This document shows positions 4,581-63,845 of a stretch of 64,000 nt of DNA, in pieces (positions within the stretch are counted from its first letter, which is position 1; every line of letters begins with the position of its first letter). The notes below the pieces were generated by a model that saw only the letters and a program-made list of their open reading frames with translations, was not told the origin of the DNA and did not search any database. The DNA comes from Eukaryota sp. GEM-RC1 (Eukaryota). The translations under genes were made by a program, and so were the position numbers. Where the stretch lies: NCBI GenBank assembly GCA_040285855.1, contig JAUFOQ010000003.1, forward strand, positions 1,302,001 through 1,366,000, given 5' to 3'.

Positions 4581-7500
4581 GCCAAAAGTAACCACTATTG
4601 AACAACATTTCCAAACTTCGTTTCTTGTTTGGGTGTCCTGACTGGACTAAGCCATGTAGCATGTAAAGAACTTTCTTTATTAAGCTAGATGGAATCAAAA
4701 TCTTGTTCTTTGAGTTCATGTATACATTACTCATTGTACACAAAGTTGAACCATTAAACAGTTGATCTCCTTGTTCTATCGCTTTAGATTGTTCTGACCT
4801 AATGGTGGATAACCAAGAGTCAAATAAAGGAAGTTTGTTGTCTGTTGAGAGATTACGAAGACACTTGATAGCTAATACGTTGGAATCACGTGGAAGCATC
4901 TCAACATAGTCTGCATCATCATAAAGTAAGCCTTCATGAGAAAGGGTTAAATCTTTTTTGATGGAAAGATTTGAGATCGTTAAAGATTTGATTGTTTCAA
5001 CTGGGCGTCGGTCAATAACACGTGACAACATGTCAGCCCATTGATTGTTTGTACCAGCTACATGTACTATCTCAAAATCGAACTCTGAGAAAATTGGAAT
5101 CCATCGTTTGACAATACGATTCTTTTCTGGAGCAGATATAAGATAAGCAAGGTTCCTATGATCAGTAAAGATCGTCAAGTGCCTACTTAACAGAAAACCT
5201 TCTAAACTAGATTCTGTCAGAATCAAAAGAATGGCATACAGCTCTTTCTGGATAGCTGCGCAATTCTGTTGACTATCATTGAGTAAACGGCTATAAAACG
5301 ATACAGGTCTAACTCTACGTTCTTCTAACGGAGTTCCTGGAGGAGCTGGAGGATTTTCTTCCTGCCAGATCACACCACCAACAGCAATGTCGGATGCATC
5401 TGTGGATATGATAATGTTCTTATCAGTATCAGGTAAGTCTAAAGCCATATGGTTTATAATCTCAGACTTTAGTTGAGTTAATAGAGCATCATGGTCTTTT
5501 GTCCAAACAATTTTCTTGGGTTTACCACGAGTCAGTTTATTGATTGATGCAGTCAAGTTCGAATAATTCGGAATCCATTCACGAACATAATTCAAAGCAC
5601 CAAGTAAACTTCTAACTTCAGGTAAAGTTGAAGGAGCAGGTAACTCAATCAACGCCGAAACTCTTTTATCATCTATGCAACGGGTTTTATTACAAAAGTT
5701 GCTGCCCAGAATCTTATTAGGATGTCTAGAAGTGGTGAACCTACACTTCTTCAATCCAATCCGTACTCTAAAACGTTCTGCTCGTTCCAGTACTAGATTT
5801 ATTCTTGAAATAAACTCTTCAAAGGTATTGCCTACAACAATTATATCATCAATATAAATGAAAACACCTTCGACATTGAAAATTTCCTTCATGATGTTTT
5901 GAAAAATTGCTGGTACGTTTTTCAATCCAAAACATGCTCGTTTAAAGCTAATAGACATTCCAGGTATAGACACACTGGTCTTCTCGACATCTTCTTCAGC
6001 TACATTTAGCTGCCAGAATGCTTTAGGAAGGTCAAGTGTTCCAATGAAATTAGCTTTCGAAAGAAACTCTAGAACATCACAGATCCGTGGTAAATTTGGT
6101 TTCACCGGTCTGGTATTAGCATTAATCCCATCAAGTCCACTGAAATCTCCAGTTAAACGAGGCTTACGGTGATCATTATAAACCACCAAGACTATGGGAC
6201 TGCTGAACTTACCAGTTGATGGTACGGCCCATCCTTGTCGTATAAGTTCATTAAAAATTTCTTCGGCTATACGCTGTTTTTCAGGGTTAAGCCTTCTAGG
6301 AGGACGAAATACAGTGACACTTTCATCATAGAATGGAATTGTCATGGGTGGACAATCAATACCATCAGGATGTATATCTTCTGAAAAGACTTGTTTGTAT
6401 TTACTGAGTAGGCTCAGAAGCTCCGTTCTTCTTGTAGAATCATCCAATTCTATCGTGCAACCAGAGTTGTCAATGGTTTCTTCAAACAGATCTATATCTA
6501 ATTGAGTGTTACCGTACTGATCAATAGTAAAATGTGTTGAATTTGGTTTTATTGAACATTTTGATTGAACTCTATTAATCGAAATTGATGGAGACCTCAT
6601 TCTCTCATCAAATTCACTCTCTGCATTGAGAATAGTGCTATGTTCTTTATCTAATCTAATGACTAGACCATCATCCGAAAGCAACCCCAGTTCTTCTTGC
6701 AAATCTCTACCAATGAGGAGAATTTTTGTTCCTGGAACTACTGGTAGAGTATGCTTAACATGAATCTGGTTGGCCAAGCTGCCAACGTTGAACGTCAAAA
6801 CACCTATTGCACTACCTAAGGAAGTAGCACGAATATTATTCGCTGAGATGTATTCAATACAACTATCAGTAGTTGTCATCTCACAGTAGCGTATCAAATC
6901 TTGAGAAATGACTGAACATGATGCTGCTGAGTCAAATTCTCCTACTACTGGTACATTGTTGATTAACAATCGAATACATAAAGGACCCTTACCTTTAGAA
7001 TCGAACCCTAGGTTCTGGTTGAGACTACGAATTGTTTCAACAGATGATGTACTTCTACCCTTGCTTGAATGTGTGTTCAAAGCAGCCAATGGGTTCATGT
7101 ACTTATGAGGTGTAGTGTGATTATCTCTAGATGTGTTATTTGTTGCAAGTCTGAAAATATAGTTATTCTGTTGTTTATTGGAACTAAAACGACGACTAAA
7201 AGATTGACTACGACTGTCACCTGATCTACGTTTGTTGGACTTCTTATCACTGTCAGATTGAGGTTTTGATCTACAATCAGTGGAGTAATGGCCCATTTTT
7301 CCACAGTTAAAACATTTAACCGTAGACTTAACATCTCCAGGTGTACCATGAGAAGATTGAGAATGTGGCTTGTTTGCGGTATTTGGTCGATTTCTTCTAT
7401 TTCTAGAAGGAAAACGACTGGAAGGAGTGGATAAGGACTTCACAGCTGTGGAACGCTTGTAGGTAGTCCAGATCGATCTAACTTCTTGGAAGAATTGAGG

Positions 7501-9921
7501 TAGCTTATCATCCTCAGTTTTGAGACGATGATCCCATCTAAGAACAAGTTCATTCAAAGCAATAATTCCTTTGTCAGGATTCAGTGTTTCTAACATCAAC
7601 TCGGCTACTGTGGAAGCAGGGACCTTTGTTCGGACAGTTTCATCACTCGACGTAGCTATTATCGCCATGGAACATTTGAGAACGCTAATTACGCCACGGA
7701 GGTATCGGTCAAAGCACTCAGCAGGGTCTTTGGAGCTACCCAATCTTATTTCTTTAATTGCATCAATGGCTGTTGTAGTTGATGAGTATTGACTCTTGTT
7801 AATCAATAAACGCCAGATGTTTTGTTCAAGTACCTGACTACTGTTGTTATTACCAATCAGATCTAACATTTTCCAATCATTCAAAGTCGTTTGATCTATG
7901 AAATGACTAATGCCAGCTGGATCAATTTCACACAATGCTGTCCTAGCAAGGTCGAATTTGTTCAAAGGAGTACCAATCCAGAGGTCATAATCGAAACGTT
8001 CAGTTTGTTTTCTGACATGAATGGCCCAATGAAAGAAGTCATGAATAAACTTCACAACCTCATAACGAGTGTCGTTTTTCAAGAACGGCTCTCTGTCTTT
8101 TTTCTTCTTGATCTTCTTGGGAGGAGTCACACCAGATGAGAGAATAACAGAATCATGAAGGACATTGTCAGGACGTTCATCTTCAGAGGATTGACTAAGA
8201 TCGATGTGATTTTCAATCGATGGAGACAAATCAGGAAACTTGTTTGATTGTCTATCTCTTTCTGCTTTGGTTTTGTTGGCTTTAGCAATCAACTCGTTTC
8301 TATGTCGAATTTTCGGTTCTTCGAGTTCTTTTTTCGACATGACTGTTGATTCTTGGTTCAAATCACGAGTGAAGTTCTCGGTCACACGGTAAACGTTTTC
8401 ATGTTCTTCACTGGCAACAAACCGATCAACGTCTCCAAATTCTCCATCAAACTTTCTAGTTGAGAGAATATCACGTGAACCATCAGTGAAGCGGTCAACA
8501 GATTCTGGACGGAAAGGTTCACCAGGAACGTGAGCAGAAAGGCGAGCAGTTTGACGTAGCTCTTCAGGCTTGGGAAGAAGTGTACCAACTTCTCGTAAAG
8601 CACCATGAGCAACAGGAAGGACCTTTTGAGATCCGCCAATGCCACTAAACTGTTGGACAACCACAGAACCTTCATCAGGAACAGCTAAGGTCGTGTTTGA
8701 TGCTTCAAAGGTTGACTGTGGAAGGTTTTCATATCTATGACCAACGGGAAGGTGTCTAGAACTAACAGCAACGTTGTGATACGCCTTGACTTGATTGCTC
8801 AAGCTTTGACAATACCACGCTAAGTAAGCATACGTAACGTATCTGCCATCGGCATCGAAACTAGGTTCCAATGGTTCAATCAAGATACCATGACGAGGAT
8901 CCCATGAGTAATCCGAGGGATAACGATACGTATCCCCAGCATCTCCATCATACAAATCACCCAGAAAGCGTTCAATAACTTGAGGGGAAATACCTGGAGG
9001 AACGTTCCTCAACAGATAGTGCCGTCTTTTAGGCATACGGTTGCGGATGACAGGATGCCAAGGAGCGAACTTCGCCAAGTGCCACATGTCGTAATCAGAG
9101 ATACCAACGCTGTTGTCTTGTGGACTTACCCAGGGTATGAGTCTATTTGGGATAGCATCCTTATGGAAGTGCTGTTCCTCAATAGACCCAACTAGCTTTT
9201 CGACTTTGTTGCCTCGATCTTCTGGAGAGAGACTCATCTTACGAGCTAGAAGTTCCTTTTCAACAAGAAGCTTCTGTTCTGCTTCGAGTCTTCTAGACTG
9301 CTCTTTGGCGAGAGATTCCTGTAACTTGCGAATCTCTTCAACCACTTCAGTTGACCTCTTTTGAGGAACTGGAACAACATCGGGAATGCTTTCTTTATTA
9401 AAACTATTTCTACGAGGAAGAATAGGGAGAGGAGACGCTGTTACAACAACATCATGACTCTCGGAATGCGGAGTACTGCTACTGTCAGCATCGCTTACTC
9501 TATACTTCTCTAACAAGCTTGGGATACGGTCTGAAATTACAGAGGGAGTATCCAAACCCACTTCGCCATCCTTGCGGGAAGACGAAGTCCTTCCATCCTC
9601 AGATGGGCATCCACCTTCAGGTTGAACATCTACAACTCTACGAGAAGTAGATTCACCACCCTCAGGTGAGATTTCCGTCACCTCCTTGTGGGAAGTGGGG
9701 CTTCTATCCTCAGATAGGCATCCGTCCTCAGACAGGCATCCATCCTCAGGTGGGTCACTTTCAAATTCCGACGAGTCAACTGACTCTTCTGTCTCAGGAA
9801 CCAATGGCTCCATTCGACGGGAAGACACTTTGGAGCTAGACTTAGATCTAGTCAAAGGTTTGTTTCTACGATTAGTTTTGTTTCCCGCTTTTGGGGGGTT
9901 AGTAGTCCTTTTCTTCACCAT
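4564..9921 (-). CDS. Gag-Pol polyprotein (Gag with CCHC knuckle, aspartic protease, reverse transcriptase, RNase H)
   Basis: CFNCGKMGHYSTDC; FDSAAS; LDLPKAFWQ, FGLKNVP, YIDD; TDASD, KELYAI, TDH, ADMLSR. First ATG at 9921 (the ORF track starts at an upstream TTG). Confidence 0.93.
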   Translation of the reverse strand: MVKKRTTNPPKAGNKTNRRNKPLTRSKSSSKVSSRRMEPLVPETEESVDSSEFESDPPEDGCLSEDGCLSEDRSPTSHKEVTEISPEGGESTSRRVVDVQPEGGCPSEDGRTSSSRKDGEVGLDTPSVISDRIPSLLEKYRVSDADSSSTPHSESHDVVVTASPLPILPRRNSFNKESIPDVVPVPQKRSTEVVEEIRKLQESLAKEQSRRLEAEQKLLVEKELLARKMSLSPEDRGNKVEKLVGSIEEQHFHKDAIPNRLIPWVSPQDNSVGISDYDMWHLAKFAPWHPVIRNRMPKRRHYLLRNVPPGISPQVIERFLGDLYDGDAGDTYRYPSDYSWDPRHGILIEPLEPSFDADGRYVTYAYLAWYCQSLSNQVKAYHNVAVSSRHLPVGHRYENLPQSTFEASNTTLAVPDEGSVVVQQFSGIGGSQKVLPVAHGALREVGTLLPKPEELRQTARLSAHVPGEPFRPESVDRFTDGSRDILSTRKFDGEFGDVDRFVASEEHENVYRVTENFTRDLNQESTVMSKKELEEPKIRHRNELIAKANKTKAERDRQSNKFPDLSPSIENHIDLSQSSEDERPDNVLHDSVILSSGVTPPKKIKKKKDREPFLKNDTRYEVVKFIHDFFHWAIHVRKQTERFDYDLWIGTPLNKFDLARTALCEIDPAGISHFIDQTTLNDWKMLDLIGNNNSSQVLEQNIWRLLINKSQYSSTTTAIDAIKEIRLGSSKDPAECFDRYLRGVISVLKCSMAIIATSSDETVRTKVPASTVAELMLETLNPDKGIIALNELVLRWDHRLKTEDDKLPQFFQEVRSIWTTYKRSTAVKSLSTPSSRFPSRNRRNRPNTANKPHSQSSHGTPGDVKSTVKCFNCGKMGHYSTDCRSKPQSDSDKKSNKRRSGDSRSQSFSRRFSSNKQQNNYIFRLATNNTSRDNHTTPHKYMNPLAALNTHSSKGRSTSSVETIRSLNQNLGFDSKGKGPLCIRLLINNVPVVGEFDSAASCSVISQDLIRYCEMTTTDSCIEYISANNIRATSLGSAIGVLTFNVGSLANQIHVKHTLPVVPGTKILLIGRDLQEELGLLSDDGLVIRLDKEHSTILNAESEFDERMRSPSISINRVQSKCSIKPNSTHFTIDQYGNTQLDIDLFEETIDNSGCTIELDDSTRRTELLSLLSKYKQVFSEDIHPDGIDCPPMTIPFYDESVTVFRPPRRLNPEKQRIAEEIFNELIRQGWAVPSTGKFSSPIVLVVYNDHRKPRLTGDFSGLDGINANTRPVKPNLPRICDVLEFLSKANFIGTLDLPKAFWQLNVAEEDVEKTSVSIPGMSISFKRACFGLKNVPAIFQNIMKEIFNVEGVFIYIDDIIVVGNTFEEFISRINLVLERAERFRVRIGLKKCRFTTSRHPNKILGSNFCNKTRCIDDKRVSALIELPAPSTLPEVRSLLGALNYVREWIPNYSNLTASINKLTRGKPKKIVWTKDHDALLTQLKSEIINHMALDLPDTDKNIIISTDASDIAVGGVIWQEENPPAPPGTPLEERRVRPVSFYSRLLNDSQQNCAAIQKELYAILLILTESSLEGFLLSRHLTIFTDHRNLAYLISAPEKNRIVKRWIPIFSEFDFEIVHVAGTNNQWADMLSRVIDRRPVETIKSLTISNLSIKKDLTLSHEGLLYDDADYVEMLPRDSNVLAIKCLRNLSTDNKLPLFDSWLSTIRSEQSKAIEQGDQLFNGSTLCTMSNVYMNSKNKILIPSSLIKKVLYMLHGLVQSGHPNKKRSLEMLFNSGYFWPEYES

Positions 9922-9971
9922 CTTGGACAATAATTATTGATACCGTTTGGCTACAAAGGGTAGGGAAAAGA

Positions 9972-10028
9972 TGTTTATAAATAAAATAATATGATCTTGT
10001 AACACTTCACTAACACCTGTGGCTAACA
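9972..10028 (-). repeat. 5' LTR of the gypsy array (outer end at 10028)
   Basis: Identity with 3228-3284 ends exactly after ...GGCTAACA at 10028. Confidence 0.8.
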
Positions 10029-10029
10029 A

Positions 10030-10074
10030 TACAACATTTGGTGATACAACATTTGTAACTACAACATTTGGTGA
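10030..10074. repeat. Three 15-bp-period repeats with core TACAACATTTG
   Basis: Core at 10030, 10045 and 10060, immediately outside the LTR end. Confidence 0.9.
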
Positions 10075-10193
10075 GAATCAATCTCAATCAACGTGTCGTT
10101 TGTGTATTGAATTGTTGTTGCTCATAATTTTTTCTTCTATATATAATGTCGTTAAACACAACCAATACAATATACAATCTCAATTTATCAAAC

Positions 10194-12648
10194 TTAACTA
10201 ACACTACTATATCCCCCCATCACCCTCGCAAACATCACAGCCAACGAAAACGACTCCTTATATCCAATCCCACAACAATACTCACACATCACTTCACGAA
10301 ATTCCTCCAATATTCCCAAACACTGTTCATCACAAGCCAATTCATCATTTAAATCTAGTATCGACACAACAAAAGTATTGGTCAACGACAACACATTAAA
10401 GTACTTGTCCCTATCATTCAAATGAAAACTCAAAATTTTGGCCATCAATAAATTTAAATCTTTTAACAACTGAAGTTTCAAACTCATATGTGATTGACAT
10501 TCTGATGTTGAATCATTTTGGTTCCAATGCAGTGGTACAATATCGTGGACAATTGTTAGAATCTTTGTTTCTGTCTGCATGGCAATACTATGAGTATTGT
10601 TCAAATTGTTTTCAAAATCTGTCTGAAGACCAAGTGAATTTGGTAATCTGTTGATAGATTCAGTGACCTCATGATCTGTAACTTTTTTTGATAATTTCAA
10701 ACTAGGTAAATTCGAATTTGGTTTGAGAGTATTTCGAGACAATAGATTTGGTCTCAATTTAGGCAAAGTAGTAACTTTGGTTGTTTTTTTCAGTTTTGGA
10801 ACAGGCTTGTTAAAAATTAAATCAGAATTGATGGCACTTACACTTTGACCATTGAGACACTCATCTTCATCATCATTCACAACAAAATCATTCATACTAG
10901 ACGACGCATCGTCATCATCATCAGTTTCATCATCTCCACTATCACTTCCAGAGACAACAACTTCATTATCGAATAATTCTAAAACTGAATCAGAAGTGGT
11001 ATTCAAATTTTGAATTTTTGGAACATCTTCCACCAAATCTTCCTCAATTTCTTCATTGACTGGATCAAGAACATCAACAGTTTCCATACTTTCACCAACA
11101 ATAGAAATAATATTGGACGAAAATTCATCAAAAGTTTTCAACACAGAAGGCCAATTTCTAACAATTCTTTCATCTTCTAATGGCAAAGGATAAAGAGGTT
11201 TAGTAACCGGTCGACAGGGGTGAAAAGTGGAATAATACCACTGATAAAGGTCAATTCTTGGTTTGGGAAATCTAGAAGAAATATCTAAAATTTTAATTGA
11301 GTTCCAGTTCTTCACCCTACTCAATGTAACGTACAATTGGGCATATTCCCAAAAATTTAATGATACTTCAATTCCTTCAATTGTTAGTCCCTGAGATCTA
11401 TGGACTGTTATTGCCCAACAAGAACGAAGAGGATATTGCAATCGGTATGCTATAATTACAGGCTTTTTTCTTCTCATTCAACACCTCAATTTCAAATTTA
11501 GTCGGAATAATTTTGATTGGTTCTTCGTCCCTCCCGAATCTTACATTAATGAAATGTGAAGTTTCTGAAAAATCAATAATTTTGCCTTTTGACCCATTTA
11601 CTAGGCCCAGATCTGGTTTGTTTTGAGTAAACATTACCAAACCCCCGACGACACAGTGAAATTTTTGTTCGGCAAAATCGTTTAGCCTACTTGATAATTT
11701 TTTTACATTTAAATCAACAGCCTTTTCCATTTGTTCCTCATTAGGCTTACCAAATGCCCAACTTTTAACAATTTCTGATTTAATTAAGGGTTCATTGAAC
11801 TTATCGAGGGAATGAAATTCAACATTTTCATTCCCTTGTTCACATAATAATTCAAATTGCTTTAAATTTTCGTCGGCGACATCCTTGTTTCTAGCAAATA
11901 ATTTGGTTGGACTTTCAATATTTTTGGCTAATGACTTATGTTTCAATAAAATATGTTTCATATAGTCATCAAAAAGTCCGAGACGTATTTCATTCAAAAA
12001 ATTATAAAAATTGACATCACCTTGTTGTCGGATACTTCCAGATAATTCAATAAAATTTAAATTCAAGTCCTTCCAAGACTGTGATGAAAACGTAAAGTCT
12101 GAAAGTTGAAGAACAGTCCGTGTGTTTGAATCAGATTTTACAATTGGTGCAAGTTGCAAAAAATCACCAAATATTACAACTTGAAGTCCACCAAATGGTA
12201 ACTGAGACTTCAGTAAATCTTTAAATATATCTGATGCTCTGTTGAATAGTTCAGCAGTCAACATTGAAATTTCATCAATAACAAGCATTGAATTTCGAGC
12301 ACTTATAGTTCTTAAAACAGATTTAACACTCGAAGGCATAGACCGAATGACATCAGATATTGGTTTTTCATTACGGATAAAATTATAACCAAAGAGAGAG
12401 TGTAGTGTTTGACCACCAAAGACAGTTGAAGCAACACCAGTAGTAGCAGTAAAAAAGACATGGCCACCTGGTCTCATTATCTTGGAACCCGCATTAGACC
12501 ACCACTGTTTAAGACAGTACAGTAGGTAAGACTTGCCCGATCCGGCACCACCAGTAATGAAGAAATTCTTACGCTTAGAAGGTCTTGCATGAGTAATAGC
12601 TTGGAAGACCTGAGCCTGTTCGTCTGTAAGTGTGTTGATAATGGACAT
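10194..12648 (-). CDS. PIF1-family (SF1B) DNA helicase with long acidic/unknown C-terminal extension; one frameshift near 11470
   Basis: Motif I GGAGSGKS, TATTGVAS, GQTLHS, motif II IDEISM, PFGGLQVVIFGDFLQLAP, IRQ, NGSKG; second frame continues RLQYPL...AITVHRSQGLT, QLYVTLSRV. Confidence 0.92.
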
Positions 12649-13102
12649 TGAGTGTGTGAAGTGGTGATGTTTAAGATGCAGATTGTGCAGGGAAACTTTC
12701 CTTTCACTATAATTTATATATCTACCTCCACTTTATGGAAAATGCTGGTCGTACATAATTCTTAGAAGCTTGTTCTATCATGATGAGCTTTCTATCGTCT
12801 CATATGTCAAATTATATGTCTATGTAAAACGTGATGTTGGTGCTGAGATTGAGCTTGATGACAAGCAATGTTTCTTGTCCTTGGACTACTTTCGAGCACT
12901 TCAACACATATCCGAGTCTTTTAAAGTCACCCCCTTGGTCTTACAAATCAAACATGAGATCTCTCTCCTAGCCCTCGTTGATGCCATTCTATCTGAAGAC
13001 AAGGTATCTTCTGCTTCTGTTTCACTAAATCCAAGGTAATTCCTCCTCCTCCCTACACAGCTGATGTTCCTCGTAGAAGTAGAACACCCCGATTTGTGTT
13101 CT

Positions 13103-13709
13103 CTATATGTCGAATGTAATCTCCTTATTGCTATTTGTTATAAAATACAACTGTTCTTTATACTTAAACAATGAATCAATGAAACTCACAAACTCCTTGT
13201 CACAATCTGCATCACATTCACAAATCTCATTCACATCAAACAAGTTGAACAACGAAGACACCCTTTTAACAACAACGGACATGTCAACAAACTCCTCATC
13301 TTGACTGTTCTCACACATAAGTATTATATCTGTCAATGTTTCAGAACATCCTGTAAACTCTTGGAATACTTCAGTAAGTAACAATTCCCTACATTCATCA
13401 CCATTCAAGGATAGTAGCAAAACTGTCAATACTTTAACTAGACACTGTCGATCATTAATACTCCAAAGAAATTCGGAAATCCATGGTACCCTTTTTAAGA
13501 TCATCTGGTAAGTCAGATGTTGACACTTCCGTTATGTGGATGGATTTAGTTCTCCATGAATTGTATGTTCCATAAGGAAGAAGAACAAGTGACAAATTAA
13601 CTGCATGCTTATCAGCAAGCTTTACAACAAGTTTCATATATGTTTTGATGGTACGGGAACGACTTTCTTGTTCAGAAGTATTTCTGAGTTTGAAGATTGA
13701 GTAGGACAT
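13103..13709 (-). CDS. Hypothetical protein (two overlapping ORFs, probably one frameshifted gene) inside the PIF1/Fanzor region
   Basis: ORFs 13455-13709 and 13103-13504 overlap at an A run; no recognisable motif. Confidence 0.35.
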
Positions 13710-13856
13710 GGGAAATTCTGGTATAGACTTTATTACAGATTTCGTTTTTTAACACGTGAATTCACACACACATGTCCATTACAGTCTGTGTGGGATTTCA
13801 TTTTCCTTCCTCCTACAGTATAAATGTCGTTTGTTCTGCATCCAAACAGATGTTGT

Positions 13857-14116
13857 CCGCCATCCTGTCCTTATCTGACTCAACTTGTGACTGTTTCCAT
13901 TGCACGGTTTCGGGCTCAGTTGAGTTTAGATAAGGACAGTTCTTCTCCCTCCACTGCCGTTGCTTCTCCCTCTACTGCCGTTGCTGTGATGACTGCCGTT
14001 GCTTTCCCCACTGCCGTTGCTGTGATGATGCCGCCATTCTGTCCTTATCTGACTCAACTTGTGACTGACTCCTTTGCACGGTTTCGGGCTCAGTTGAGTT
14101 TAGATAAGGACAGTTC
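13857..14116 (+). repeat. Direct repeat of an approximately 86-bp unit, each containing a 75-nt hairpin, separated by ACTGCCGTTGCT minirepeats
   Basis: Units at 13857-13942 and 14031-14116. CTGTCCTTATCT...AGATAAGGACAG forms a perfect 12-bp inverted repeat, with further inner stems. Confidence 0.9.
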
Positions 14117-14150
14117 ATTCTGTGTTTTATCAACACATACATTTGTTGCC

Positions 14151-17100
14151 ATGAAGTACTCGTCTCCCCTGTTTATCCCTTCCCATCCTCCGTTCCCAAA
14201 AGACCTCACCGCTGATGGTGATATTGAATCCAATCCAGGACCCGTAACTCAAGAAGCCATAAACTCAGTTTATCCTCATCAATGGGTTGATGACGAAGCG
14301 ATAGTGGAGTACTGTAAAGTGATATTTCAAGAAGCAGAGTTAGACTTTGAAAGCATGTTTATCCATCCGACCACATGGCTTCAATACATTGTTTCACCAG
14401 ATGTCCCGCTAGATCAATGGTTGTTGACGAAAATTCAGCGAAATCAAAGAACAAACTCCAAATACCTCTTTGTTCCCCTTAGTGATACCATGACTAGAAA
14501 TGCTAATTATTCCAGAGAAGGTGTCACTGGTTCTCATTGGGGTTTAGCCATTATAGACTGTTGTGAAAAGGAATGGATCTTCATTGATCCAATGTTAACT
14601 AGCGAAGATATGAGTAAGTCTATGGTAAAATCAGCTGTAGACATATTATCCGAAGTACTTGTGCCATGGGGGTATGTTTTCCGTTATGTGCCTGTGACTA
14701 AAACACAGTCTGCTAACGACTGTGGAGTTTATGTCATTGCGTATATTCAAAAATATGTTGAACTTTTTAAAAGACTCACGTATGTTCCGTCTCTGATGTA
14801 TTTGGAAACTTATTTGGTCCAAGTGAACAATGAACTTCAAGCAGACATATTTCGTGAAAAAATTCTGGATGTATTGTCTCAACAAAGGACACTTTATCTG
14901 CAACAACGTCAAACCACAGTAGCTCCTATTGTACCATCGTTACCCATTCAACCTCCTGCCGGTGAAGAACGTCCAACCACTTCAATTCCTCTCACAGGTT
15001 CACGTCTTGCTAGCACTAAAACATCTACTGGTTTAAGCACTAAAAAAAGTAAGCCCAAAATTTCTGATATTCCATCACCACGAGGTTCACCTTTAATTCA
15101 ACGAAATAAATTTAGAACTACCAGCTCCCTTGTTTCAACTGGTGACACTCCAATACGAAAGACTCACCGCCGTATGTCCACATTGGAATCATCTGAAGTA
15201 ACATCATCTGAATTACCTCCATCACCATCTGAATTACCACCATCTGAACTACCACCAAAATCACAGGCCTCCATTATGTCGTATCCATTGCCAATTCAAA
15301 AGAAATTCATAATATGGAAGTAAATCTACACACTGAGCCTATCGAACAAGAAATACAAATTCAAGACTTTCTTAAATCCCCTCTTCTTTGGAATAATCTT
15401 CCCACTTTTTGTTTAATTGACGTTCAAAGTGATTTTGCCAAAAAGAAAGAATTAATGGCAGAAATGTTCAACTTGTTCAAGAAGATGATGATGACATTGA
15501 AACTGTTGAAGGTGAAGCTGAAGATCAATTCGAAGTTAAACGTGATTCTTCTGTTGATCCGATTGTATCAATTTCCATCCAGATCATTGATCACAATGAG
15601 TTTAATGAAAAACATTTATTTTCTCATGGCAATTTTGATACTACAAACTTGGATTTGTGTACTTTACATATTTCAGATAGTGAATCCAGTATGCTTAAAA
15701 ACTTCATCTCCTTCATTACTCAACATTGTCCACGATTGTTTGTGAGTTATGACTTTCACTTAGATACATTTCCCTTTCTTTTATCACGTTGTAAAGTCCT
15801 CAAAATCAATACAACGTTTACTTTTCCAGAATTTAAACCCTATATTCCCTTTTGGTTCAACAAATGGTGTAAGGAAACAACTTTTGGTCCGTTTTTTAGT
15901 CTCGATTTGAATGCTGTACTGAAGAATTTTTATGTCTTTACTGGTGGCCGTTTTTTGGAAAATGTTGTTCAAATTTTTCTTGAAATGAATAATTTTTCTA
16001 AAAATGAAACTGTCAAACGCTTGGAAGTACTTTATCATGACTCTGATCCTGATGAAGTTCAATTGGTCAATAATGTCCAAAACTTACATGGCATAATTGA
16101 CAGTATTAATGTTTTAGTTCCAGACAATCCCAAAGTGAAGGTCGATAAGATTGAAAAGAAATTTGTAAAAAATTTGGAGAAAGTAAATGAACTTTGGGCC
16201 AAGGAATCGACAAAACCGCTATTGTTGATCAACTCAATTCAACAATTACCTCTGATTGAGTACTTGTTGGCTGACCTATTGGATCCCAAAAAGCAAACAT
16301 TACGTTCAAAGTCACCAATGAAAGTGGTTAAGAAACGACTGGACAATGTTGTATCCAAAGCGAAGGTTAAATTTATTGAATCTCGTGTTAAGAGAGCTCA
16401 CCAAGTAAGAGTCCGTAGTACTCTCTTTTTGAAACATTTTTTTGTTCATAATTTTCACCATTCAGGTATTTTAGGTTACATTTAGAAGTTACTGCCTGCT
16501 GTTTCAAATGTAACTGTTAAGGAAGAAATGAATTCTGATACAGATGAGTCAACTGAAGAAGAAACAGATGTACATTCAGAGTCTATCGATGCTACTGCTC
16601 CTCCCGTTAAATTAGAAAATATTGAAGATGCGAGTGGTGAACCTGAACCTGACCTTTGGACTAGAATTCAAACTACCAAAATTGAATTGCCAGACTGGAA
16701 GAATTTTTTTACGTTGAAATCAATGGAACAAGTGTTGTCTATGATGACGATTAGGGACCACAAACTTGTAAACAATCAGAATCATATTGAGACTGTAAAA
16801 GAGTCTTTAGAAAACATAATTTCTAACACAAATGATGGCCCAACTCAAAATCAGTTTGCTCAACATTTCTTGATGCATTACATTCCTCGTTTAGAAATAG
16901 CTGCTCGATCTGTTGGACTTGATAGGATTGTGTTTCCCAGTAGTCATCGTTTATCTCCTATATTGCATTACATGGCTACAGAAATTATTACAAATTACAA
17001 GACTAACATGAGTGAACACTTTCACGAATATGTTTTTCAAGTATTTAATTTGGTTACCCTGAAAAAAGATAGACTTAACAAGCTTAGTGATAAGAATCAA

Positions 17101-19260
17101 CGACAAGAGTTGTGTACAAAGCTTAATGAAGTCAGACAGTTGATCATTAATGGGGAAATTTCAAAAATTAATTTTCAAGATGTTGAAGTGTTTCCTGATC
17201 CCAATTCTAGAGAGAGAGATGTTTATTCGGCACCCAATAAGGTAACCTTTCTACAAACTATAAACTCCCAATTCTAGACTGAGTTTACTATTTTTTAATT
17301 ATTTGTTTACTTTTTTTGAAGGTAAAATGGAGAAAACAATCTATTATGCTGAAAAAGTAGATCCTTTGAAATTCTTAAGTCATGCAGTGTATTTAAAACG
17401 TCTTGTTGAAGACTCTTGTACTGGTGTTACTGCCAATAATCCTTTTCCTCTGACAAAATCATTGATTCCTAATCATATCAGATTGGATACTACATGGTTT
17501 AAAAAAGTTTATGCATCAGAAATTAAAGGTAGCTTTGATGACGTTCGAAAAGATATTGGCACTCAGTTTTGAAACCAAAGTTTCTTCCAAAGTCATTGTC
17601 TCATGACTTCAAATACAGTTCTATTTCTACAGATGGAGTTAGCTGTAGTTTAATGATGATGCGGAAAGATCTGCTTGATGGGAGAGGAAATCCTCATAAG
17701 AAGGTGAAAGCTGTTGACTACACAGCTACTGAAAGGTACATTGATTCTTTGAGTTCCACAGAAATTCAAAACTTAAATTTGAAATCAAAAAGAATTGTTG
17801 CTATTGATCCTAATCAGCATGATTTGATGTATTGTGCTTCTTTAAAATCTAAGGAGGAAAAGAAAATCGAAGGTTTCGATACATCAGCCAATCTCAGAAG
17901 AAGAACGATTTGTCCAAAATCGTCAAAGAAAAAAAGGAAGCTTGAAAAAATTAAAAAAGGAATTGAAGGATTGGAAAGACGCACCTACTATTGACAAACC
18001 ATCAACTGTCAAGTTGAAAAATCGAGACAATTGGAAAGTATTCAGATACACTGCTGGGGAACGCAATGCCGATATTAAAAAGTCTCCATGGAAAAGAAAA
18101 AAACAAGGAAGGAAAGAAAAAGAGCTAAGAGAAAGAAGAGGAAGCTGGAGAAGAAAATAAGACGATACAATCTCCACCGTTTATCTGAATCCGAACGGTT
18201 ACAACAATATTCTACTCAATTTATTCACATTCCAGATGGCAGACGCATTGACATAAATGGGCAACAAATTTTAGATCAATGGGGCTCTAACTCGCCAGGC
18301 AGTAGATCTTGTGATTTGACTCAGTATTCTGATTTTGTTCTTGGTAAAGAAATTACCTGTTCTTTATTACGATCACCCACTACTGATCAAAGAACTACTG
18401 AAGGAATTTACGAAGAAAAGTGGTTTAGGAGGAATCGTCTCACACAGTATTCAAGAAAGGAACGAAGTGAGAAAAACATGCTTCACAGATTTGCTCTCCA
18501 ATTTGGTAACCCAGATGAAGTCGTTGTTGGGTATGGAGACTGGAACGACACTACTTTTCGTCGAAGAAGAGGTAAAGCATCTACTGTAAAAGGTGCTTCA
18601 ATTCGGAAATTATTGGGAAAATTTGGATTTAAAGTGTTCCTAGTTGATGAATTTAAGACCAGCAAATGTTGCTCTGCATGTGTTTCCAGAAACGACGAAG
18701 GTATCTGTTCCAATCCTGAAAGGATAAAAGTCACTGATCCTCATTGGAAGAAGAAGTTACAGAAGGAAGAGAAAAGAATTAAAAAAGGAAATTATGGAAC
18801 ACAATCAATTAGACAATATTGTGGAGCGTAACTTTGAAAAGAATGGACAGACCAGTTGCCATTTTCGAAAGAAAGATTGAAGAACAACAAAGTCTCACCA
18901 TGGGGCTTAGTTGAATGTGCTAAATGTCATGTCCTCTGGAATAGAGACTTCAACTCTGCTATCAATATTTACAATATTGTAAATGGAACCATTCAAGGTC
19001 AAGGTAGACCTGCCATCCTCGAGAGACCAAAATCTCAAACAACACCTGTTGTGGATGGCGGGAATACAGATCAGATTCCTAAGAAAAAGACTGTGAGTAA
19101 GGGTAAGGGTAAGGCAAAACGTCCTCCAACAACTGTCAGAGGTCCTAACAAGTGTCGTATATGTTCTCAACCTGGACATAACAAAACAACTTGTCCAAAT
19201 AAGCCTAAGAAAGATGTACCCAAGGACTCACACGTAAACCAGAAAGATCAGGAATCTTGA
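14151..19260 (+). CDS. Putative multidomain Fanzor1 polyprotein: 2A peptide, Ulp1/SENP8-like protease, PolB exonuclease-like domain, Fanzor (RuvC), CCHC knuckle; broken by frameshifts, two in-frame TAGs and/or introns
   Basis: Consecutive same-strand ORFs join at homopolymer runs. Domain motifs are listed in the sub-features. The upstream in-frame ATG at 13824 is an alternative start. Confidence 0.7.
14202..14243 (+). other. 2A / StopGo ribosomal skipping peptide
   Basis: DLTADGDIESNPGP matches the D(V/I)ExNPG|P consensus with the typical upstream L..xGD. Confidence 0.9.
14244..14880 (+). other. Ulp1/C48 cysteine protease domain (SENP8/DEN1-like)
   Basis: WVDDEAI, LFVPLSD...GSHWGLAII, FIDP, QSANDCGVYV: His-Asp-Gln-Cys catalytic motifs intact. 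Confidence 0.88.
15390..16010 (+). other. Family-B DNA polymerase 3'-5' exonuclease-like domain, probably catalytically degenerate
   Basis: Across two frames: FCLIDVQ (ExoI DxE changed to DxQ), DPIVSISI, ESSMLKNFISFITQHCPRLFVSYDFHLDTFPFLLSRC (ExoII-like), FSLDL, FLENVVQIFL. Confidence 0.6.
16290..19030 (+). other. Fanzor1 (eukaryotic TnpB homologue) domain region
   Basis: N-terminal VVKKRL...VKRAHQ...TLFLK; PFPLTKSLIPNHIRLDT; ISTDGVSCSL; RuvC-I AIDPN (D at 17806); FRYT; YGDW; RuvC-II VDEFKTSKCCSAC (E at 18649); CAKC and RuvC-III WNRDFNSAINI (D at 18946). Confidence 0.92.
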
Positions 19261-19394
19261 ATCTATGAAGTTAGCTCGTCTTAAAAGACTTTGCGAATGA
19301 GGACATTTATTTGTTCAAACTGTGGGTTTTGCTCTATGAGATCATGAAAATGTGAAGGGTTATGCCCTTATGCATTTGGAATGAAATTCACAGT
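19246..19394 (+). ncRNA. Putative Fanzor omegaRNA scaffold
   Basis: Directly 3' of the Fanzor ORF. Hand-predicted stems: GTCTT/AAGAC (19278-19289), GGACA/TGTTC (19301-19316), ACTGTGGGTTTT/GAAATTCACAGT (19319-19330 with 19383-19394), AAATGTGAAGGG/CCCTTATGCATTT (19348-19377). Confidence 0.6.
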
Positions 19395-19449
19395 AGTAAG
19401 GTAGAAGACAATTTCAATGGGAAATTTGAACTTTGAGGATGTTGATTAG
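19395..19449 (+). mobile_element. 3'-terminal coding fragment of the CRE-like non-LTR retroelement
   Basis: Reads KVEDNF...GNLNFEDVD*, compared with KVGENFQLGNLDFEDIDY* at 39837-39895 (minus strand); nucleotide similarity is also visible. Confidence 0.75.
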
Positions 19450-19793
19450 AGTGTTTAATTCTGACGCGTACGTGTTTCGTTCGAGAAAAACAATGATCAA
19501 AAAAAACTAAGTGTACAAAGTTTACTTAGTGAACTATATTTTACAGATACGGAGTCAAATAATTGAAGAAACATTGTACTACTCGAATTAAATAAATTCT
19601 AAAATAACTAAGCCTATCGAAAATTGAGCCAACAGAAGTAAATAAATACAACCTTGGCATCAGTCTAGGACCAAAACAAAAAAGAATCTAATCAGATACT
19701 AATCAACGACTAAATCTCACGTAATACAAAACCAAAAAGCATCATATTCTCAACTTCAATCAATATTGAACAGAGACATAAAAAACCACAAAA

Positions 19794-22700
19794 TCACGAA
19801 TTCCGTCCAAGTTCTTTCATTGTTTCATCCTTTAACTTGTTACAAATCTCATAAAACAGTGCAGACTCCCGATGTTCATGCTTCTTTGGAGTACTACTAT
19901 TAGACCTGGGAATGGGATGAGGTTTAGGTAAAACCAATGAGGGAGAGTGAAGAACAGAAGGAGAGGGAGCAAATCGTTCTGAGGAAGGAACCCAAGGACT
20001 TGAAGGAGATTTACTTTTCTCCAAATTAAAATTAGCCTTTTGTAATTCTCTAACTCTACTCTGCAGCTCATCAACAGCAGACCTTTTCGAGGAACGTACA
20101 CGTGACCTTGATTGGCTCACATAGGGTGTATACGAGTGGACAGCGGGTGAGCTGTCAGTTATAGACTGTACTGTAGACTCCAATTCAGAGATACGTTTTC
20201 TAGACAACTTCAACTCTTCAAGAATGGGACTAGTAACACTGTGTTCTGAACTTCTGGTACTTCTAAAGGAAGATCTTAAATCACTGATAGAATTACGTAA
20301 ATCAAGAATTACTTCATCACGGTCTTGAAGATCCTCTTTACACGTCATCAAACGACGACGGAGGATGTCAACTGTAGCGTCACTTTCACCTCTGAGAGCT
20401 TCTAAGGCATTAATTTGAGCTTTAAGATCGAAAATTTGAGAATTTAAAATTTTTGTTTGGGAAGATGTTGACTCAAGATTCACAAATACCTGGTGATAAT
20501 CGTGTTCCAGTTCATGATACTTCTCTGTCAATTTAGCTAACTGACGCGAGGAATCCTTGTGGGAAGCTAACCGTGCCTTCAAGTCTTCAATTGCCATTGA
20601 CTTCTTTTCAACAGCGGCTGTACATTCTTGAATATAAGCTAATAATTTGTTTTTGGACTCAGACAAACCTTCTACCCTGTTACATAGAGCATCAGAGTTC
20701 TTTCTTTCTTCTAGTAAAAGCTGACTTAGAGAACGATTGGAGCTTTCTAATTGTAACACTTTGGTGGATAATTCAGAAATCGAAGATGATAGTTTTAGGC
20801 TTTCAAAGCGAAGTTTCTTTTGTTCAGCGTTGTTATCATCGTTGATAGCTGATAATGATTGTTTGGAATCAGAAAGTGATGAGATTCGATCCCTTAGTGA
20901 TTGGTTTCGAGTTCGTTCCCGTTGAAGTTTCTGATCGGCATCTTCTTGAATTTTTGAAATTTCATGAGACTTTTGTTGAAGTTGATGTTTAAAGTCCAAG
21001 ATAGACTTATCATGATCCTTACGTAGTTGATTTAAATTTTCGCTTAAATTTGAGATCTCAGAGTCTTTTTCTTCGATTAAGTCCTCTAATTCAACTTTAA
21101 CTTCAGTAATTGTTTTAATTTGTTCAACAATTTCAGACAGATATTGGTTCGTTCTGTGAGCTTCAGAATCTTTTTCACTAATTGTAGATTCCAAATCTTG
21201 AATAATTGATTCATAATTTGAAAGTTGAGTTTTTAATTCAGTCAATGAGTGATCATTTCCATCAGTAATAGATTTTAATTTCAAAGAAAGAGACGAAATT
21301 TCATCGTCTTTTTCTGACAACAATTGTTCCAAATTCAGTTTTTCTTTGATAATGTGTTGAATTTTACAAGTCAACAAGGAATGAGAATTTGGTGGTAACG
21401 AAGCAGTTTCATTGGGCATTTCAGGTAAATTATCTTGAATTTCGAATAATTCGGCTTCTTTTTCAGATATTTCAGTTTTGAGATTTGAAATTGCAGACTC
21501 GTAACTATTCAATTGGTCTTTTAACTGGGAAACTGTGGCAGATTCTTCACTACGTAGTTCACTCAAATTTTGGCTCAAATTTGAAATTTCTGTATCTTTT
21601 TCTTCAATTAATTCCTCTAATTCAATTTTTACTTCAGTAACTGCTTTAATTTGATCTACAATTTCAGAAAGATGAACGTTAGTCCTGCGAGCTTCAGAAT
21701 CTTTTTCACTAATTGTGGATTCCAAATCTTGAATAATTGATTCGTGATTTGAAAGTTGAGTTTTTAATTCAGTCAATGAGTGGTCATTTACATCAGTAAT
21801 AGATTTTAATTTCAAAGAAAGAGATGAAATTTCATCGTCTTTTTCTGACAACAATTGTTCCAAATTAAGTTTTTCTTTGACCATGTGTTGAATTTTACAA
21901 GTCAATAATGAATGAGAATTTGGTGGTAACGAGGCGGTTTCATTGGGAATTTCAGGTAAATTATCTTGAATTTCTAATAATTCGGCTTCTTTTTGAGCTA
22001 TTTCAGTTTTGAGATTTGAAATTGCTGACTCATAACTATTCAATTGGTCTTTTAACTGGGAAACTGTGGCAGAATCTTCACTACGTAGTTGACTCAAATT
22101 TTGCCTCAAATTTGAAATTTCTGTATCTTTTTCTTCAAGTAACTTCTCCAACTCAGATTTAGCTTCAGTAACTGCTTTAATTTGATCTACAATTCCAGAC
22201 AACTTTTGATCGGATTGTTGAGCTTCAGAATCTTTTCACTAATTGTAGATTCCAAATCTTGAATAAGGGCTTCATAATTTAAAAGTTGAGTTTTTAATTC
22301 AGTCAATGAGTGGTCATTTCCATCAGTAATAGATTTTAATTTCAAAGAAAGAGACGAAATTTCATCGTCTTTTTCTGACAACAATTGTTCCAAATTAAGT
22401 TTTTCTTTGATAATGTGTTGAATTTTACAAGTCAACAATGAATGAGAATTTGGTGGTAACGAGGCGGTTTCATCAGGCATTTCAGGTAAATTATCTTGAA
22501 TTTCTAAAAATTCGGCTTCTTTTTGAGCTATTTCAGCTTTGAGATTGGAAATTGTAGACTCGTAACTATTCAATTGGTCTTTTAACTGGGAAACTGTTGC
22601 AGAATCTTCACTACGTAGTTGACTCAAATTTGAAATTTCTGTATCTTTTTCTTCAAGTAACTTCTCCAACTCAGTTTTAGCTTCAGTAACTGCTTTAATT

Positions 22701-37563: not shown

Positions 37564-37769
37564 GTTTATTTGAATATTCCGTGTTATCTAAATATTTGTA
37601 CAGAATGATTCTTCATCACGTTGACCCAGTTCACAGTTATACAGACGTAGGATGTTCATTGTTGCATGATACTACATCAATGTTTACATTCTACATCATC
37701 ACTTTAGTTGATTTGGTATATTGTATTTGCTTTAAAAAAACTGTTGTTAGACAAAGGGGACATAAATAC

Positions 37770-62274: not shown

Positions 62275-63845
62275 TAATGTGTTTAAATACTGATACTTTC
62301 CCCCATCACTCTAGCAAACATCCTTACCAGAGACAACTGTTCATTAAATCCAATACTACAACAGTACTCACACATCGCTTCACGAAATTCATCCAATATT
62401 TCCAAACAGTTGATCACAAATCAAGTTATCATTTAAATCTAGTCAATTTCAGGGATACAACAACAGTATTGGTGAACGACAACACATCAAAGTACTTGTC
62501 CCTATCATTCAAATGAATACTCAAAATTTTGACCAAGCCTAAATTAAATCTGTTTATAGTTTCATTTTTTTAAATCATACTTTTTTATGAAAAAGTTTGT
62601 CTGGATATAATGAAATAAACAGTCTAAAACTCAGTATCATCAAAGCAAGATTCCCGAACCTTGTTGAAGCTTTGTCTTCATAATACACACTGACGGATAA
62701 TAAAGCTCTCGAAATCATTGTGGGAACTGCTTTTTGAATTGTAAAGACAATTCTGTTCTTTCGGTTTCATTTTCTGTAAAACACGTTGAATCTGAATTAT
62801 GTCCTTTTGATGTATCCATCTACGGCCGTTTAGGACAAAGTTTTTTCTATCAGAACAAATCATAACAAATTGAATGAACATACGCTTTGATCATATGGTA
62901 TAGTTGAATCTTATACTTTTTACAACATTTCCCCTAATGATCTGCAAAGCTTTACCAGCTGTCAGTTCCTTCTATGAAGTTAAACTGTTGCCAGATGTGA
63001 TAGTGACGGAGGTTGTTTTCATGATACCAAAATTTAGCTCTATGCAATTATGCTGATACTTTGAAGAATCTTATCAAATTTGTATTCGCAATTTTCCTTT
63101 GTTCCATTTGCAATCTCAATTTTTGGTAATATTGATCCAACAGGTTTAAAAGTATTTAGTGTGATTTTATTATTATATGTCGTTCTAACGGAAAGGCCTC
63201 TATTGGTACGGAAGAATAGAAATTGTGTTTGCGTTGTACAGAAGCACCCCAAGTATCTAAGTTCCACTTGTTCCAAGTTGCATAGAGACGGTTATCGTGT
63301 TGATGTGGAAAATTTATAATCTATTGTTGCAAATAAAGTATTGTTTATTTAGTATATTACATTTATAAATGACATTTAGAACTGAATACATGTATTTTGA
63401 AGACATCCAATGAGTAATTTCCCAGTTGTATTCCAATGAGTCTGTCTAAACAACAAGGTAATGTGTTACACAGTCTCCTCAGGCTGCGTAGTACTCTTTG
63501 GTAATTTCAAACCAAACAAATTTGAATATACTCTTAAAGACTTTCGAGACAATAGATTTGTTCCCAATGCGAATTAAGTAACTGTTTTTGTTGCTTCTTT
63601 CAATGCCAACACAACATTCTATATTCTGATGATGTTGAAACTGAACAAGAGGACAATGTCCGATCTAGTTTGGATAAGTCTAAAAATGGTCAAAATGTGA
63701 ATTGCCATTATTCCTGGTCGATTTTTTTTTTAACAAAAATCATCTTCAGACAATTCTGAAACTGAATTAGAAGAGGTATTCCAATTTTGATTACATGAAA
63801 CTTCCTTCTCTAAATCTTCCTCAATTTCCATCATTGACTTGATCA
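62275..63845 (-). pseudogene. Decayed second copy of the PIF1 gene 3' extension, interrupted by about 0.95 kb of unrelated sequence
   Basis: 62290-62545 matches 10205-10460 (e.g. AAAGTACTTGTCCCTATCATTCAAATGAA); 63500-63845 matches parts of 10690-11070 (TTTCGAGACAATAGATTTG; AAATCTTCCTCAATTTC). Confidence 0.8.

Follow-up and report, generated by a model that had tools for sequence, protein, structure and literature searches.

In the standard model, as given in the available part of one account, a Fanzor nuclease restores an element after its excision by a transposase, and this enzyme may be supplied in trans (PMC13565253). Fanzor elements of the Mucor MCi-2 type, in the portion of their description at hand, have swapped 5' regions and lack terminal inverted repeats (TIRs) and a full transposase (PMC3627910). 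Excerpts of two further papers are relevant here: in T4, intron homing makes use of a 3'-5' exonuclease that is part of a family-B polymerase (PMC2988022), and Carpediemonas carries multicopy stand-alone Pif1-like genes (PMC8516963). A search of the open-access literature found no report of a natural Fanzor joined to a proofreading-type exonuclease, Ulp1 and 2A, nor of a Fanzor in Skoliomonas. The locus described here, in a window of 64,000 nucleotides from Eukaryota sp. GEM-RC1, a free-living anaerobic protist, carries such a fusion opposite a PIF1 helicase gene.

Organisation of the locus

The plus-strand unit (13824-19396) is a broken copy of one frame of about 1,810 codons, in which a tandem-repeat leader is followed by a 2A motif, an Ulp1 protease, a PolB-type 3'-5' exonuclease domain, Fanzor1 and a zinc knuckle (Table 1). 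The PIF1 gene, twin hairpins and protease-Fanzor chain of the initial annotation were all recovered at their places by Pfam, folding and frame analysis; the 2A motif proper (14220-14243), the exonuclease domain and a LINE 3' stub (19397-19507) are additional to it. The left limit, 10029, coincides with the edge of a Ty3/gypsy LTR (start TG read from the sequence) belonging to a tandem array (repeat 1409-3288 equals 8152-10032 at 99.6%) that carries RT, RNase H and integrase (Pfam) and conceals where the PIF1 repeat truly ends on the left.

Table 1. Features of the locus and its flanks (positions in the window)
Feature	Position	Strand	Remarks
5' LTR of tandem Ty3/gypsy array	9948..10028	-	flank, outside element; inner LTR edge probable
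Three tandem 15-bp repeats	10029..10073	.	at gypsy junction
PIF1-family helicase	10194..12648	-	has an acidic linker; C-terminal tail belongs to no known family; multicopy
22-nt motif over PIF1 start codon	12639..12660	-	inverted repeat of it at 13761-13781
108-codon open frame	12713..13039	+	without in-frame ATG; no family
Two open frames, possibly one frameshifted gene of ~200 aa	13103..13709	-	no family
Second start-motif copy	13761..13781	+	ATG 13772 opens 53-codon frame overlapping main start
Variable leader	13824..14189	+	two 174-bp units, each with 75-nt hairpin
2A/StopGo-like peptide ending DIESNPGP	14190..14243	+	motif at 14220-14243
Ulp1/C48 cysteine protease	14439..14762	+	His, Asp, Gln, Cys motifs present
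PolB-type 3'-5' exonuclease domain	15400..16310	+	limits approximate; catalytic motifs degenerate here
Fanzor1 core	16312..19060	+	limits approximate; six frame switches, one stop (16483)
CCHC zinc knuckle and stop codon	19153..19260	+	knuckle missing from sister-species proteins
Candidate omegaRNA scaffold	19261..19396	+	terminal stem closes about 19394; position probable, by analogy
3' end of RLE-type LINE	19397..19507	+	last codons, short UTR, A8 tail
Decayed copy of PIF1 C-terminal tail	62286..63845	-	LINE fragment inserted

The initial annotation saw no transposase, Rep or recombinase, and indeed none of the 93 stop-to-stop frames (at least 40 aa) in 10029-19520 belongs to a transposase (DDE included), Rep, recombinase or RT family, nor does this interval contain an HUH motif. 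Nor do these 93 frames encode the RT and endonuclease of a non-LTR retroelement. Of the genes expected in a Polinton/PLV or NCLDV relic (polymerase, capsid, packaging ATPase, integrase), they hold nothing beyond the exonuclease domain, and no virion family is among them. The right end has no inverted partner in 9900-19300 (best score 10.5, shuffles 9-15.5), and no target-site duplication (TSD) was found around this copy, whose left end may lie outside 9900-19300.

The PIF1 gene and its copies

The helicase (Pfam PIF1, E 4e-33) starts at an ATG at 12648, and its frame is broken once, by a frameshift near 11470 through which other copies read. It is 96-99% identical to all nine members compared. 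There are 24 close sequences, in two 90% clusters on at least nine contigs, and a second PIF1 family adds 17; these numbers rule out a single-copy host PIF1. The PIF1 here is not fused to a Rep, and other copies, too, begin at their own ATG. That the block is repetitive has been borne out, both the PIF1 and the Fanzor halves being multicopy, yet two details needed revision. The supposed separate ORF at 10194-10600 is present as sequence but, according to P0132 and P0138, forms the C-terminal tail of the PIF1 frame; and the copy at 62-64 kb, a real repeat aligning with 10214-10464 (81.8%), 10687-10792 and 10975-11067, represents the tail only, the helicase core being absent, and is split by a LINE piece.

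The suggested Helitron-like or virus-derived origin is not supported. Besides the lack of Rep, a comparison with 19 solved PIF1-family sequences puts Helraiser last at 80.6 bits, the top score being 137.9, and the PIF1 phylogeny that had been proposed, run with no Helitron rows, yielded no supported sister (0.495). Viral PIF1s are 25-32% identical to the one here, and no viral relative was found among 73 candidates for the Fanzor or 46 for the exonuclease.

Between the divergent genes, the 9-mer and 10-mer of the start motif occur in the window only at its two sites (pair score 32, 0/300 shuffles). The exact sequences of the 13103-13709 frames are absent from the protein collection searched.

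The Fanzor polyprotein

Both leader hairpins, at 13865-13939 and 14039-14113, fold significantly (z -5.9 and -6.6; 0/200 shuffles each), which confirms the twin hairpins noted earlier and places them inside the leader of the plus-strand frame; the leader has no Rfam match at E<=1. It is one of five types in GEM-RC1, three being found in the sister species TZLM3-RCL, and the switch between leaders falls 9-20 residues before the core of the 2A motif. Since leader L2 is combined with three types of protease and leader L5 with two types, it appears that copies recombine with one another. The 2A/StopGo core D(V/I)ExNPGP, as worded in the part of the literature available, is matched once in the window (0/100 shuffles), and the motif recurs in 19 GEM-RC1-type proteins (the window's included) and four TZLM3-RCL proteins; it is predicted to cause ribosome skipping.

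The Ulp1 and exonuclease domains both exceed the Pfam cut-off (PF02902, E 1.9e-5; PF03104, E 2.8e-8). For P0206, a relative, the Foldseek top matches of the predicted fold are all family-B polymerases (E 4e-6), at a TM of about 0.3 and on a model with pTM 0.54. DEDDy exonucleases are recognised by the motifs ExoI (D-x-E), ExoII (D) and ExoIII (Y-x3-D). In the alignment, these are intact in P0212 and P0242 and lost in four GEM-RC1 subfamilies; judged by its residues, the exonuclease of the window's lineage is dead.

In the Fanzor1 core, the RuvC residues D 17806, E 18649 and D 18946 and the C4 zinc finger are all present. The split D-E-D arrangement, with E close before the zinc finger, is common to the window and 6/6 relatives checked, and as the triad is kept in all of them, cutting appears to be under selection. 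P0201 matches SpuFz1 at E 1.7e-15 and has just two PDB matches, both Fanzor1. TAM-dependent, RNA-guided DNA cleavage would be the predicted activity of the family. The candidate omegaRNA, a single copy, folds modestly (z -1.95; 5/200 shuffles fold equally well). Its terminal stem ends no more than 3 nt from the junction with the LINE, on the same strand, and is followed by the UTR and A8; the LINE stub would supply the guide of this copy. This stub is 79.6% identical over 54 nt to 39894-39841 (score 55, 0/60 shuffles) and shares its ATGAT(C/T)A-tail ending with two other LINE ends.

Copies elsewhere were compared as proteins, while ends, TSD and omegaRNA were judged on the window's DNA copy. 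The family is multicopy among proteins that NCBI names Skoliomonas. Continuity of the frame is evident from P0173 (997 aa; leader, 2A, Ulp1, exonuclease and start of Fanzor in one frame), from P0219 (exonuclease end to REC region) and from P0194, P0201 and P0202 (644 aa), which extend to the knuckle; 17085-17327, unbridged by these, is colinear in P0211. TZLM3-RCL has intact 2A-exonuclease-Fanzor proteins of 1,473-1,491 aa, in clusters of four and six, whose Fanzor part is 34% identical. A single metagenome relative, L001, was found (32% identity).

Mode of spread

Tentatively, we read the plus strand as a transposase-free multicopy Fanzor1 element spread by cut-and-repair homing, a reading that we consider possible rather than probable. 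It is based on the continuity of the frame in other copies, the lack of a transposase, TIR and TSD, the conserved RuvC triad and the swapped leaders, with T4 intron homing and the MCi-2 elements as precedents. We infer all enzymatic steps and the mode of spread as follows. Whatever the type of leader upstream, the 2A peptide would release the enzyme from it. Fanzor and its 3' omegaRNA would then cleave sites that match, and repair of the break by the host would bring in a copy of the element. The exonuclease, where intact (as in the sister species), is predicted to trim broken ends, while in the window's lineage it would be a dead relic, possibly DNA-binding. Ulp1 would likely strip SUMO from repair or silencing proteins, and PIF1, a second multicopy repeat gene, could aid long-tract copying if it is part of the element at all. 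Homing accounts for spread among related sites, not for the seeding of new ones. The standard model, with a transposase that may be supplied in trans, weighs against homing. Several findings also count against it: the lineage in which copies of the family look most abundant has a dead exonuclease, the candidate omegaRNA has a modest fold, and Ulp1 and the Fanzor C-terminus are adjacent in 0/35 locus tags, which may reflect many partial copies. Moreover, homing into a LINE leads one to expect a LINE body at the left end, and 10029-13830 holds none (scores 20-28, within shuffles).

This missing LINE body would be explained if the left end lay beyond the gypsy array, as in the initial proposal that PIF1, the two small frames and the Fanzor polyprotein form one DNA element of at least 9.4 kb. 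Such an element would have inserted into an old LINE and later been hit by the array; PIF1 would drive copying, and a nicking or integrating enzyme would lie beyond the array or be unrecognised. The inverted 22-nt motif at both divergent starts, the lack of a visible repeat boundary between the two halves and the similar cluster sizes (24 PIF1, 26 Fanzor C-termini) speak for this arrangement, as do two near tag pairs, 006533/006535 and 004844/004850. However, 1/19 PIF1 genes lies within four tags of any of 64 Fanzor-unit tags (0.76 expected) and 2/19 within eight (1.42 expected; second PIF1 family, 0/17), which is not above chance, although this test is powerless, as its positive control, Ulp1 beside the Fanzor C-terminus, gave 0/35 too. 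The absence of Rep or HUH, the weak Helraiser match and the precedent of stand-alone Pif1-like genes in Carpediemonas also weigh against a single element, as does the fact that the best 120 of 816 matches include no PIF1 from TZLM3-RCL (to proteins of 228-728 aa, among which an intact protein of ~820 aa would escape). We regard it as doubtful. The junction on the right invites another interpretation, namely that 13824-19507 is a non-autonomous retroelement in which an exonuclease-Fanzor cassette has replaced RT and endonuclease, flanked on its 5' side by a LINE-like start (tandem repeats, 2A, Ulp1) and on its 3' side by the tail of a LINE; copying in trans would fall to a LINE RT, and Fanzor, with a fixed guide, would target LINE copies. 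L1 promoters have swappable tandem-repeat 5' ends, which the leader resembles, and the position of the scaffold stem and the lack of TIRs agree with such an origin. According to the parts of the papers available, 2A motifs occur near the N-terminus of LINE ORFs (PMC3708506) and N-terminal Ulp1 in NeSL and Utopia RLE-LINEs (PMC4640811), but Ulp1 is also found in Ginger and Mutator DNA transposons (PMC2836005). Nonetheless, there is one junction only, without a TSD, in a window rich in LINE pieces (three A-tailed ends, five further coding regions), and LINE tags adjoin Fanzor-unit tags in 1/14 cases (0.56 expected, by a test without power). We hold this origin to be unlikely. The same applies to its extended form, a first retroelement-borne or LINE-homing Fanzor, that is, a LINE shell with a built-in guide hijacking a host LINE family by RNA-guided cutting, with stand-alone PIF1 helping long copying, which we consider improbable.

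Least probable, in our estimate, is a non-autonomous DNA transposon derivative which no longer has a transposase of its own and depends for its movement on a DDE or HUH enzyme encoded elsewhere and acting in trans; Fanzor would restore copies that had been excised, and PIF1 and the LINE stub would be chance neighbours in a repeat-rich genome. This is the usual context of Fanzor1, and L001 is flanked by perfect inverted repeats of 32 bp and accompanied by a transposase-like ORF, by its motifs possibly of the IS630/mariner type; the assembly of a named relative, in the available portion of its report, is 48% repetitive (PMC11316075). Yet the right end has no inverted partner in 9900-19300, and five interchangeable 5' ends are hard to square with fixed transposase-binding termini.

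Comparison with known systems

The family bears on the question of how transposase-free Fanzor elements spread and why the nuclease is kept. Intact sister-species copies with all catalytic motifs make cutting, trimming and skipping directly assayable, and a LINE tail that proved to be a constant part of the element would run counter to the statement now current, in the available text, that no retrotransposon encodes Fanzor (PMC13565253). Fanzor1 proteins (SpuFz1, PDB 8gkh; Parasitella Fanzor1, 9cf0) share with this family the rearranged RuvC, E just before the C4 finger, the intact triad and, as a candidate feature here, a structured 3' region after the ORF. However, they have about 600-700 aa, versus about 1,480-1,810, and the element adds N-terminal 2A, Ulp1 and PolB exonuclease in frame and, in the window's lineage, a C-terminal CCHC. 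MCi-2, CMe-1A and CRe-1/2/3 (Bao and Jurka 2013, PMC3627910) likewise lack a complete transposase or TIR and combine a common Fanzor 3' part with 5' regions that can be exchanged; unlike here, the available main text mentions neither protease nor exonuclease and reports no 2A, MCi-2 has 11-12-bp TSDs, and the CRe elements are Helitron2 derivatives. Helitrons and Helitron2 with Fanzor resemble the locus in a nearby PIF1-family helicase and in hairpins close to the Fanzor unit's 5' end, but the locus has no Rep/HUH, and its PIF1 is a stand-alone gene with less similarity to Helraiser than to any other solved PIF1. Of the Helitron-type termini (5' TC/T, 3' hairpin with CTRR), a left one would be covered by the gypsy array. 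The Carpediemonas Pif1-like genes, in the passages at hand, are likewise divergent, recently duplicated and stand-alone, in a metamonad, and lie outside the PIF1 tree presented here (PMC8516963). NeSL/Utopia RLE-LINEs and L1Tc/Ingi 2A-LINEs, as far as their accessible descriptions go, have an N-terminal Ulp1 or 2A and a LINE-type 3' tail as in this copy, whereas the unit lacks an RT or RLE domain and the described 2A LINEs are APE-type. Finally, phage T4 homing endonucleases, in the available accounts, share the proposed cut-and-repair spread using a family-B polymerase 3'-5' exonuclease, but the element, for which homing is a prediction, is RNA-guided and eukaryotic, and its exonuclease is fused to the nuclease.

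One gene in many copies

The plus strand carries one gene, in which a leader with two hairpin repeats is followed by a 2A motif, an Ulp1 protease, a low-complexity linker, a PolB exonuclease domain, Fanzor1 and a CCHC knuckle. The window copy is probably dead, since a substitution has created an in-frame stop at 16483; it also contains eight frame switches. Indels, real or due to assembly errors, are a likelier source of these switches than introns, because other copies either read through the breaks (predicted proteins P0173, P0219 and the 644-aa P0194, P0201 and P0202) or share several of them at A- or G-runs, and this recurrence at homopolymers means that some breaks may be assembly errors. 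A splice-pattern scan of the region yielded two candidate introns, and no break coincides with either. The frameshifts within the repeats of the neighbouring LRR gene likewise hint at assembly errors. With no Rfam match at E<=1 across 9900-19800, a ribozyme role for the hairpins is unsupported, and comparison of the unknown frames with Pfam, NCBIfam, PHROGs and Atlas brought no meaningful match (best value 0.86, a lead only).

The window comes from a repeat-rich protist genome with short introns, and the proteins closest to its own are named Eukaryota sp. GEM-RC1 by NCBI. This organism is the free-living metamonad called Skoliomonas sp. GEMRC in PMC11316075, where a long-read assembly of 33.5 Mb, 48% repetitive and with 14,268 predicted proteins, is described; the supplements searched mention no Fanzor, TnpB or PIF1. 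The evidence on other copies consists solely of predicted proteins. Among proteins of 274-874 aa, the Ulp1 query retrieved 37 sequences in 12 clusters, all with GEM-RC1 representatives, and 26 sequences, 15 of them listed, make up the cluster of Fanzor C-termini. A profile-free search of the exonuclease frame against 1.84 billion representatives gave nine matches, all from GEM-RC1 or its sister species TZLM3-RCL. The latter has intact proteins of 1,473-1,491 aa, among them P0211, P0212 and P0242, that combine leader, 2A, linker, exonuclease and Fanzor and are devoid of Ulp1 and knuckle; their two clusters, of four and six members, were the only ones found by a whole-length search among proteins of 813-2,589 aa. 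Proteins of both species have an intact RuvC triad. The exonuclease domain, which among solved structures is matched best by polymerase delta and other enzymes of family B, retains its motifs in P0212 and P0242 and has lost them in four GEM-RC1 subfamilies.

Among the 23 proteins bearing 2A, GEM-RC1 has five leader types and TZLM3-RCL three, mostly built of tandem repeats. Leaders are exchanged directly upstream of 2A, and recombination has paired them with three types of protease. An L/P-Y/C-L-T-Q/K peptide occurs in leader repeats of both species (P0242, P0173 and the window), which suggests that a conserved DNA or RNA motif may lie at the hairpin base. Some subfamilies (P0158, P0159, P0174, P0186 and P0188) carry a tandem pair of Ulp1-like domains, of which the second is degenerate; a common linker connects the pair to one or the other type of exonuclease. 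In a metagenome scan (596 stretches), at least one Fanzor-relative locus was present among the matches listed. The Fanzor1 transposon at 87-7429 of this locus, L001, is complete and AT-rich and is bounded by perfect inverted repeats of 32 bp; it carries a transposase-like ORF and, on the opposite strand, a 1,208-aa cargo ORF with a P-loop-like motif.

Features of the window
Feature	Positions	Strand	Remarks
Tandem Ty3/gypsy array	1-10028		LTRs of ~80 bp, common to copies; copies 99.6% identical; left copy with internal deletions; right copy with 1,789-codon gag-pol frame, frameshifts further on
PIF1 helicase gene	10194..12648	minus	
Perfect 13-nt inverted repeat	12675-12687, 13201-13213		One arm upstream of PIF1; borderline against chance
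Leader to knuckle	13824-19260	plus	
Leader peptide	13857-13880		
Frame switches, near	15300, 15445, 17270, 17555, 17960, 18080-18150, 18780, 18838		
Gap	17085-17327		Colinear in P0211
Candidate omegaRNA	19261-19396		
LINE stub	19397-19507	plus	
LRR and long coiled-coil gene	19794-28388		519-888-bp tandem repeats; frameshifts within repeats
MITE-like segments	30367-30858, 37731-38790, 61147-61794		0.5-1 kb, bounded by inverted repeats
RLE-type LINE fragments	38042-40652, 50786-51319, 62647-62760		Tails with common ATGAT(C/T)A-run
LINE frame	39840-40394		In 25-member cluster
Spo11/TopoVIA gene	40888-42114		Intact
MMPL-family transporter gene	44712-47692		Bacterial type, in a protist genome; split over several frames

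The PIF1 helicase

The initial annotation viewed the PIF1 gene and the Fanzor unit as one Helitron-like or virus-derived element. All features that it listed are present in the window sequence, and its statement that no transposase is recognisable holds: none of 93 frames of at least 40 aa has a transposase, Rep, recombinase or RT family. The left limit of the proposed element coincides with the edge of the gypsy LTR, so its true left end is hidden.

The helicase is not a single-copy host orthologue, as it is represented by 24 sequences that form two clusters and lie on at least nine contigs, together with a second family of 17 at 48-58% identity; the window protein is 96-99% identical to all nine GEM-RC1 proteins compared, so the host is probably that species or a near relative of it. 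The attribution to Helitrons or viruses is not supported: PIF1 stands alone, Helraiser is the least similar of 19 solved sequences, and viral PIF1s are 25-32% identical. The proposed phylogeny was built from 131 sequences and 403 columns (four family members, matches P0006-P0120 and 12 of the 13 viral loci, L008 being left out; Helitron and labelled host rows were not included) and revealed a long branch but gave no placement (sister support 0.495). The decayed PIF1 copy reported at 62-64 kb is a real repeat relic, but it covers the PIF1 tail only and carries a LINE insertion. A weak tblastx match between 13145-13207 and 63852-63914 was lost on DNA alignment.

Mode of spread

We tentatively propose a transposase-free Fanzor element that spreads by cut-and-repair copying. 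Skipping at 2A would free the enzyme from whichever leader precedes it, and Fanzor would then cut sites matching a guide derived from the flank. The exonuclease, where alive, could trim the ends, as the gp43 exonuclease and DexA do in T4 intron homing (PMC2988022), and host repair would copy the element; Ulp1 may act on SUMO, a role that has been suggested for it in Ginger and Mutator elements (PMC2836005).

That PIF1 and Fanzor form one element seems unlikely, and any link between them is less likely than not. A 22-nt motif lies across the PIF1 start and again, in inverted orientation, 43 nt ahead of the start of the plus-strand unit; it occurs nowhere else in the window (0/300 shuffles), which favours a common unit. 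PIF1 locus tags adjoin Fanzor-unit tags in one of 19 cases (0.76 expected) and, for the second family, in none of 17, a result without power, as the tags of Ulp1 and Fanzor, two parts that are necessarily linked, also adjoined in 0/35 (cluster members listed were 15/19 and 15/26).

Mobilisation of Fanzor by a LINE is quite unlikely, although the right end offers an argument for it. The 136 nt after the stop have a modest fold (z -1.95; 5/200 shuffles fold as well), the terminal stem of which closes at about 19394, and at 19397, on the same strand, the 3' end of an RLE-type LINE begins, with its final codons, UTR and A8 tail. This close fit is notable, though spotted after the fact, and LINE pieces are so frequent in the window (three tails and five other regions) that the stub may be there by chance. 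Because no LINE body is found in 10029-13830, the 2A unit is unlikely to have simply inserted into a LINE on its own. Either the element extends further left, beyond both PIF1 and the gypsy array, or it includes the tail, or the stub came in as a separate event. Searches of the element region found neither TIR nor TSD. A DNA transposon mobilised in trans appears improbable.

Comparison with known systems

By the sequence features compared, the plus-strand element agrees with Fanzor1 and does not agree with a Helitron, an autonomous DDE transposon, a Polinton or viral relic, or an autonomous LINE. Individual parts of its toolkit are known elsewhere: 2A in LINE N-termini (PMC3708506), Ulp1 in NeSL and Utopia (PMC4640811), and an expansion of Pif1 in Carpediemonas (PMC8516963), and PMC6338049 names Fanzor and DnaQ-like accessory domains separately. 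Fanzor is absent from the main text of three 2A surveys (PMC12846837, PMC12338488 and PMC13405545), whose supplements may list these peptides, and no report of a Fanzor-exonuclease-Ulp1-2A fusion was found in the literature as far as its accessible text extends. Of the elements described so far, the MCi-2 and CMe-1A families, which are transposase-free and 5'-swapped, come closest (PMC3627910). The element is a genuine Fanzor1 variant, new and present across the lineage, that fuses an unusual set of tools; its intact relatives make it testable.
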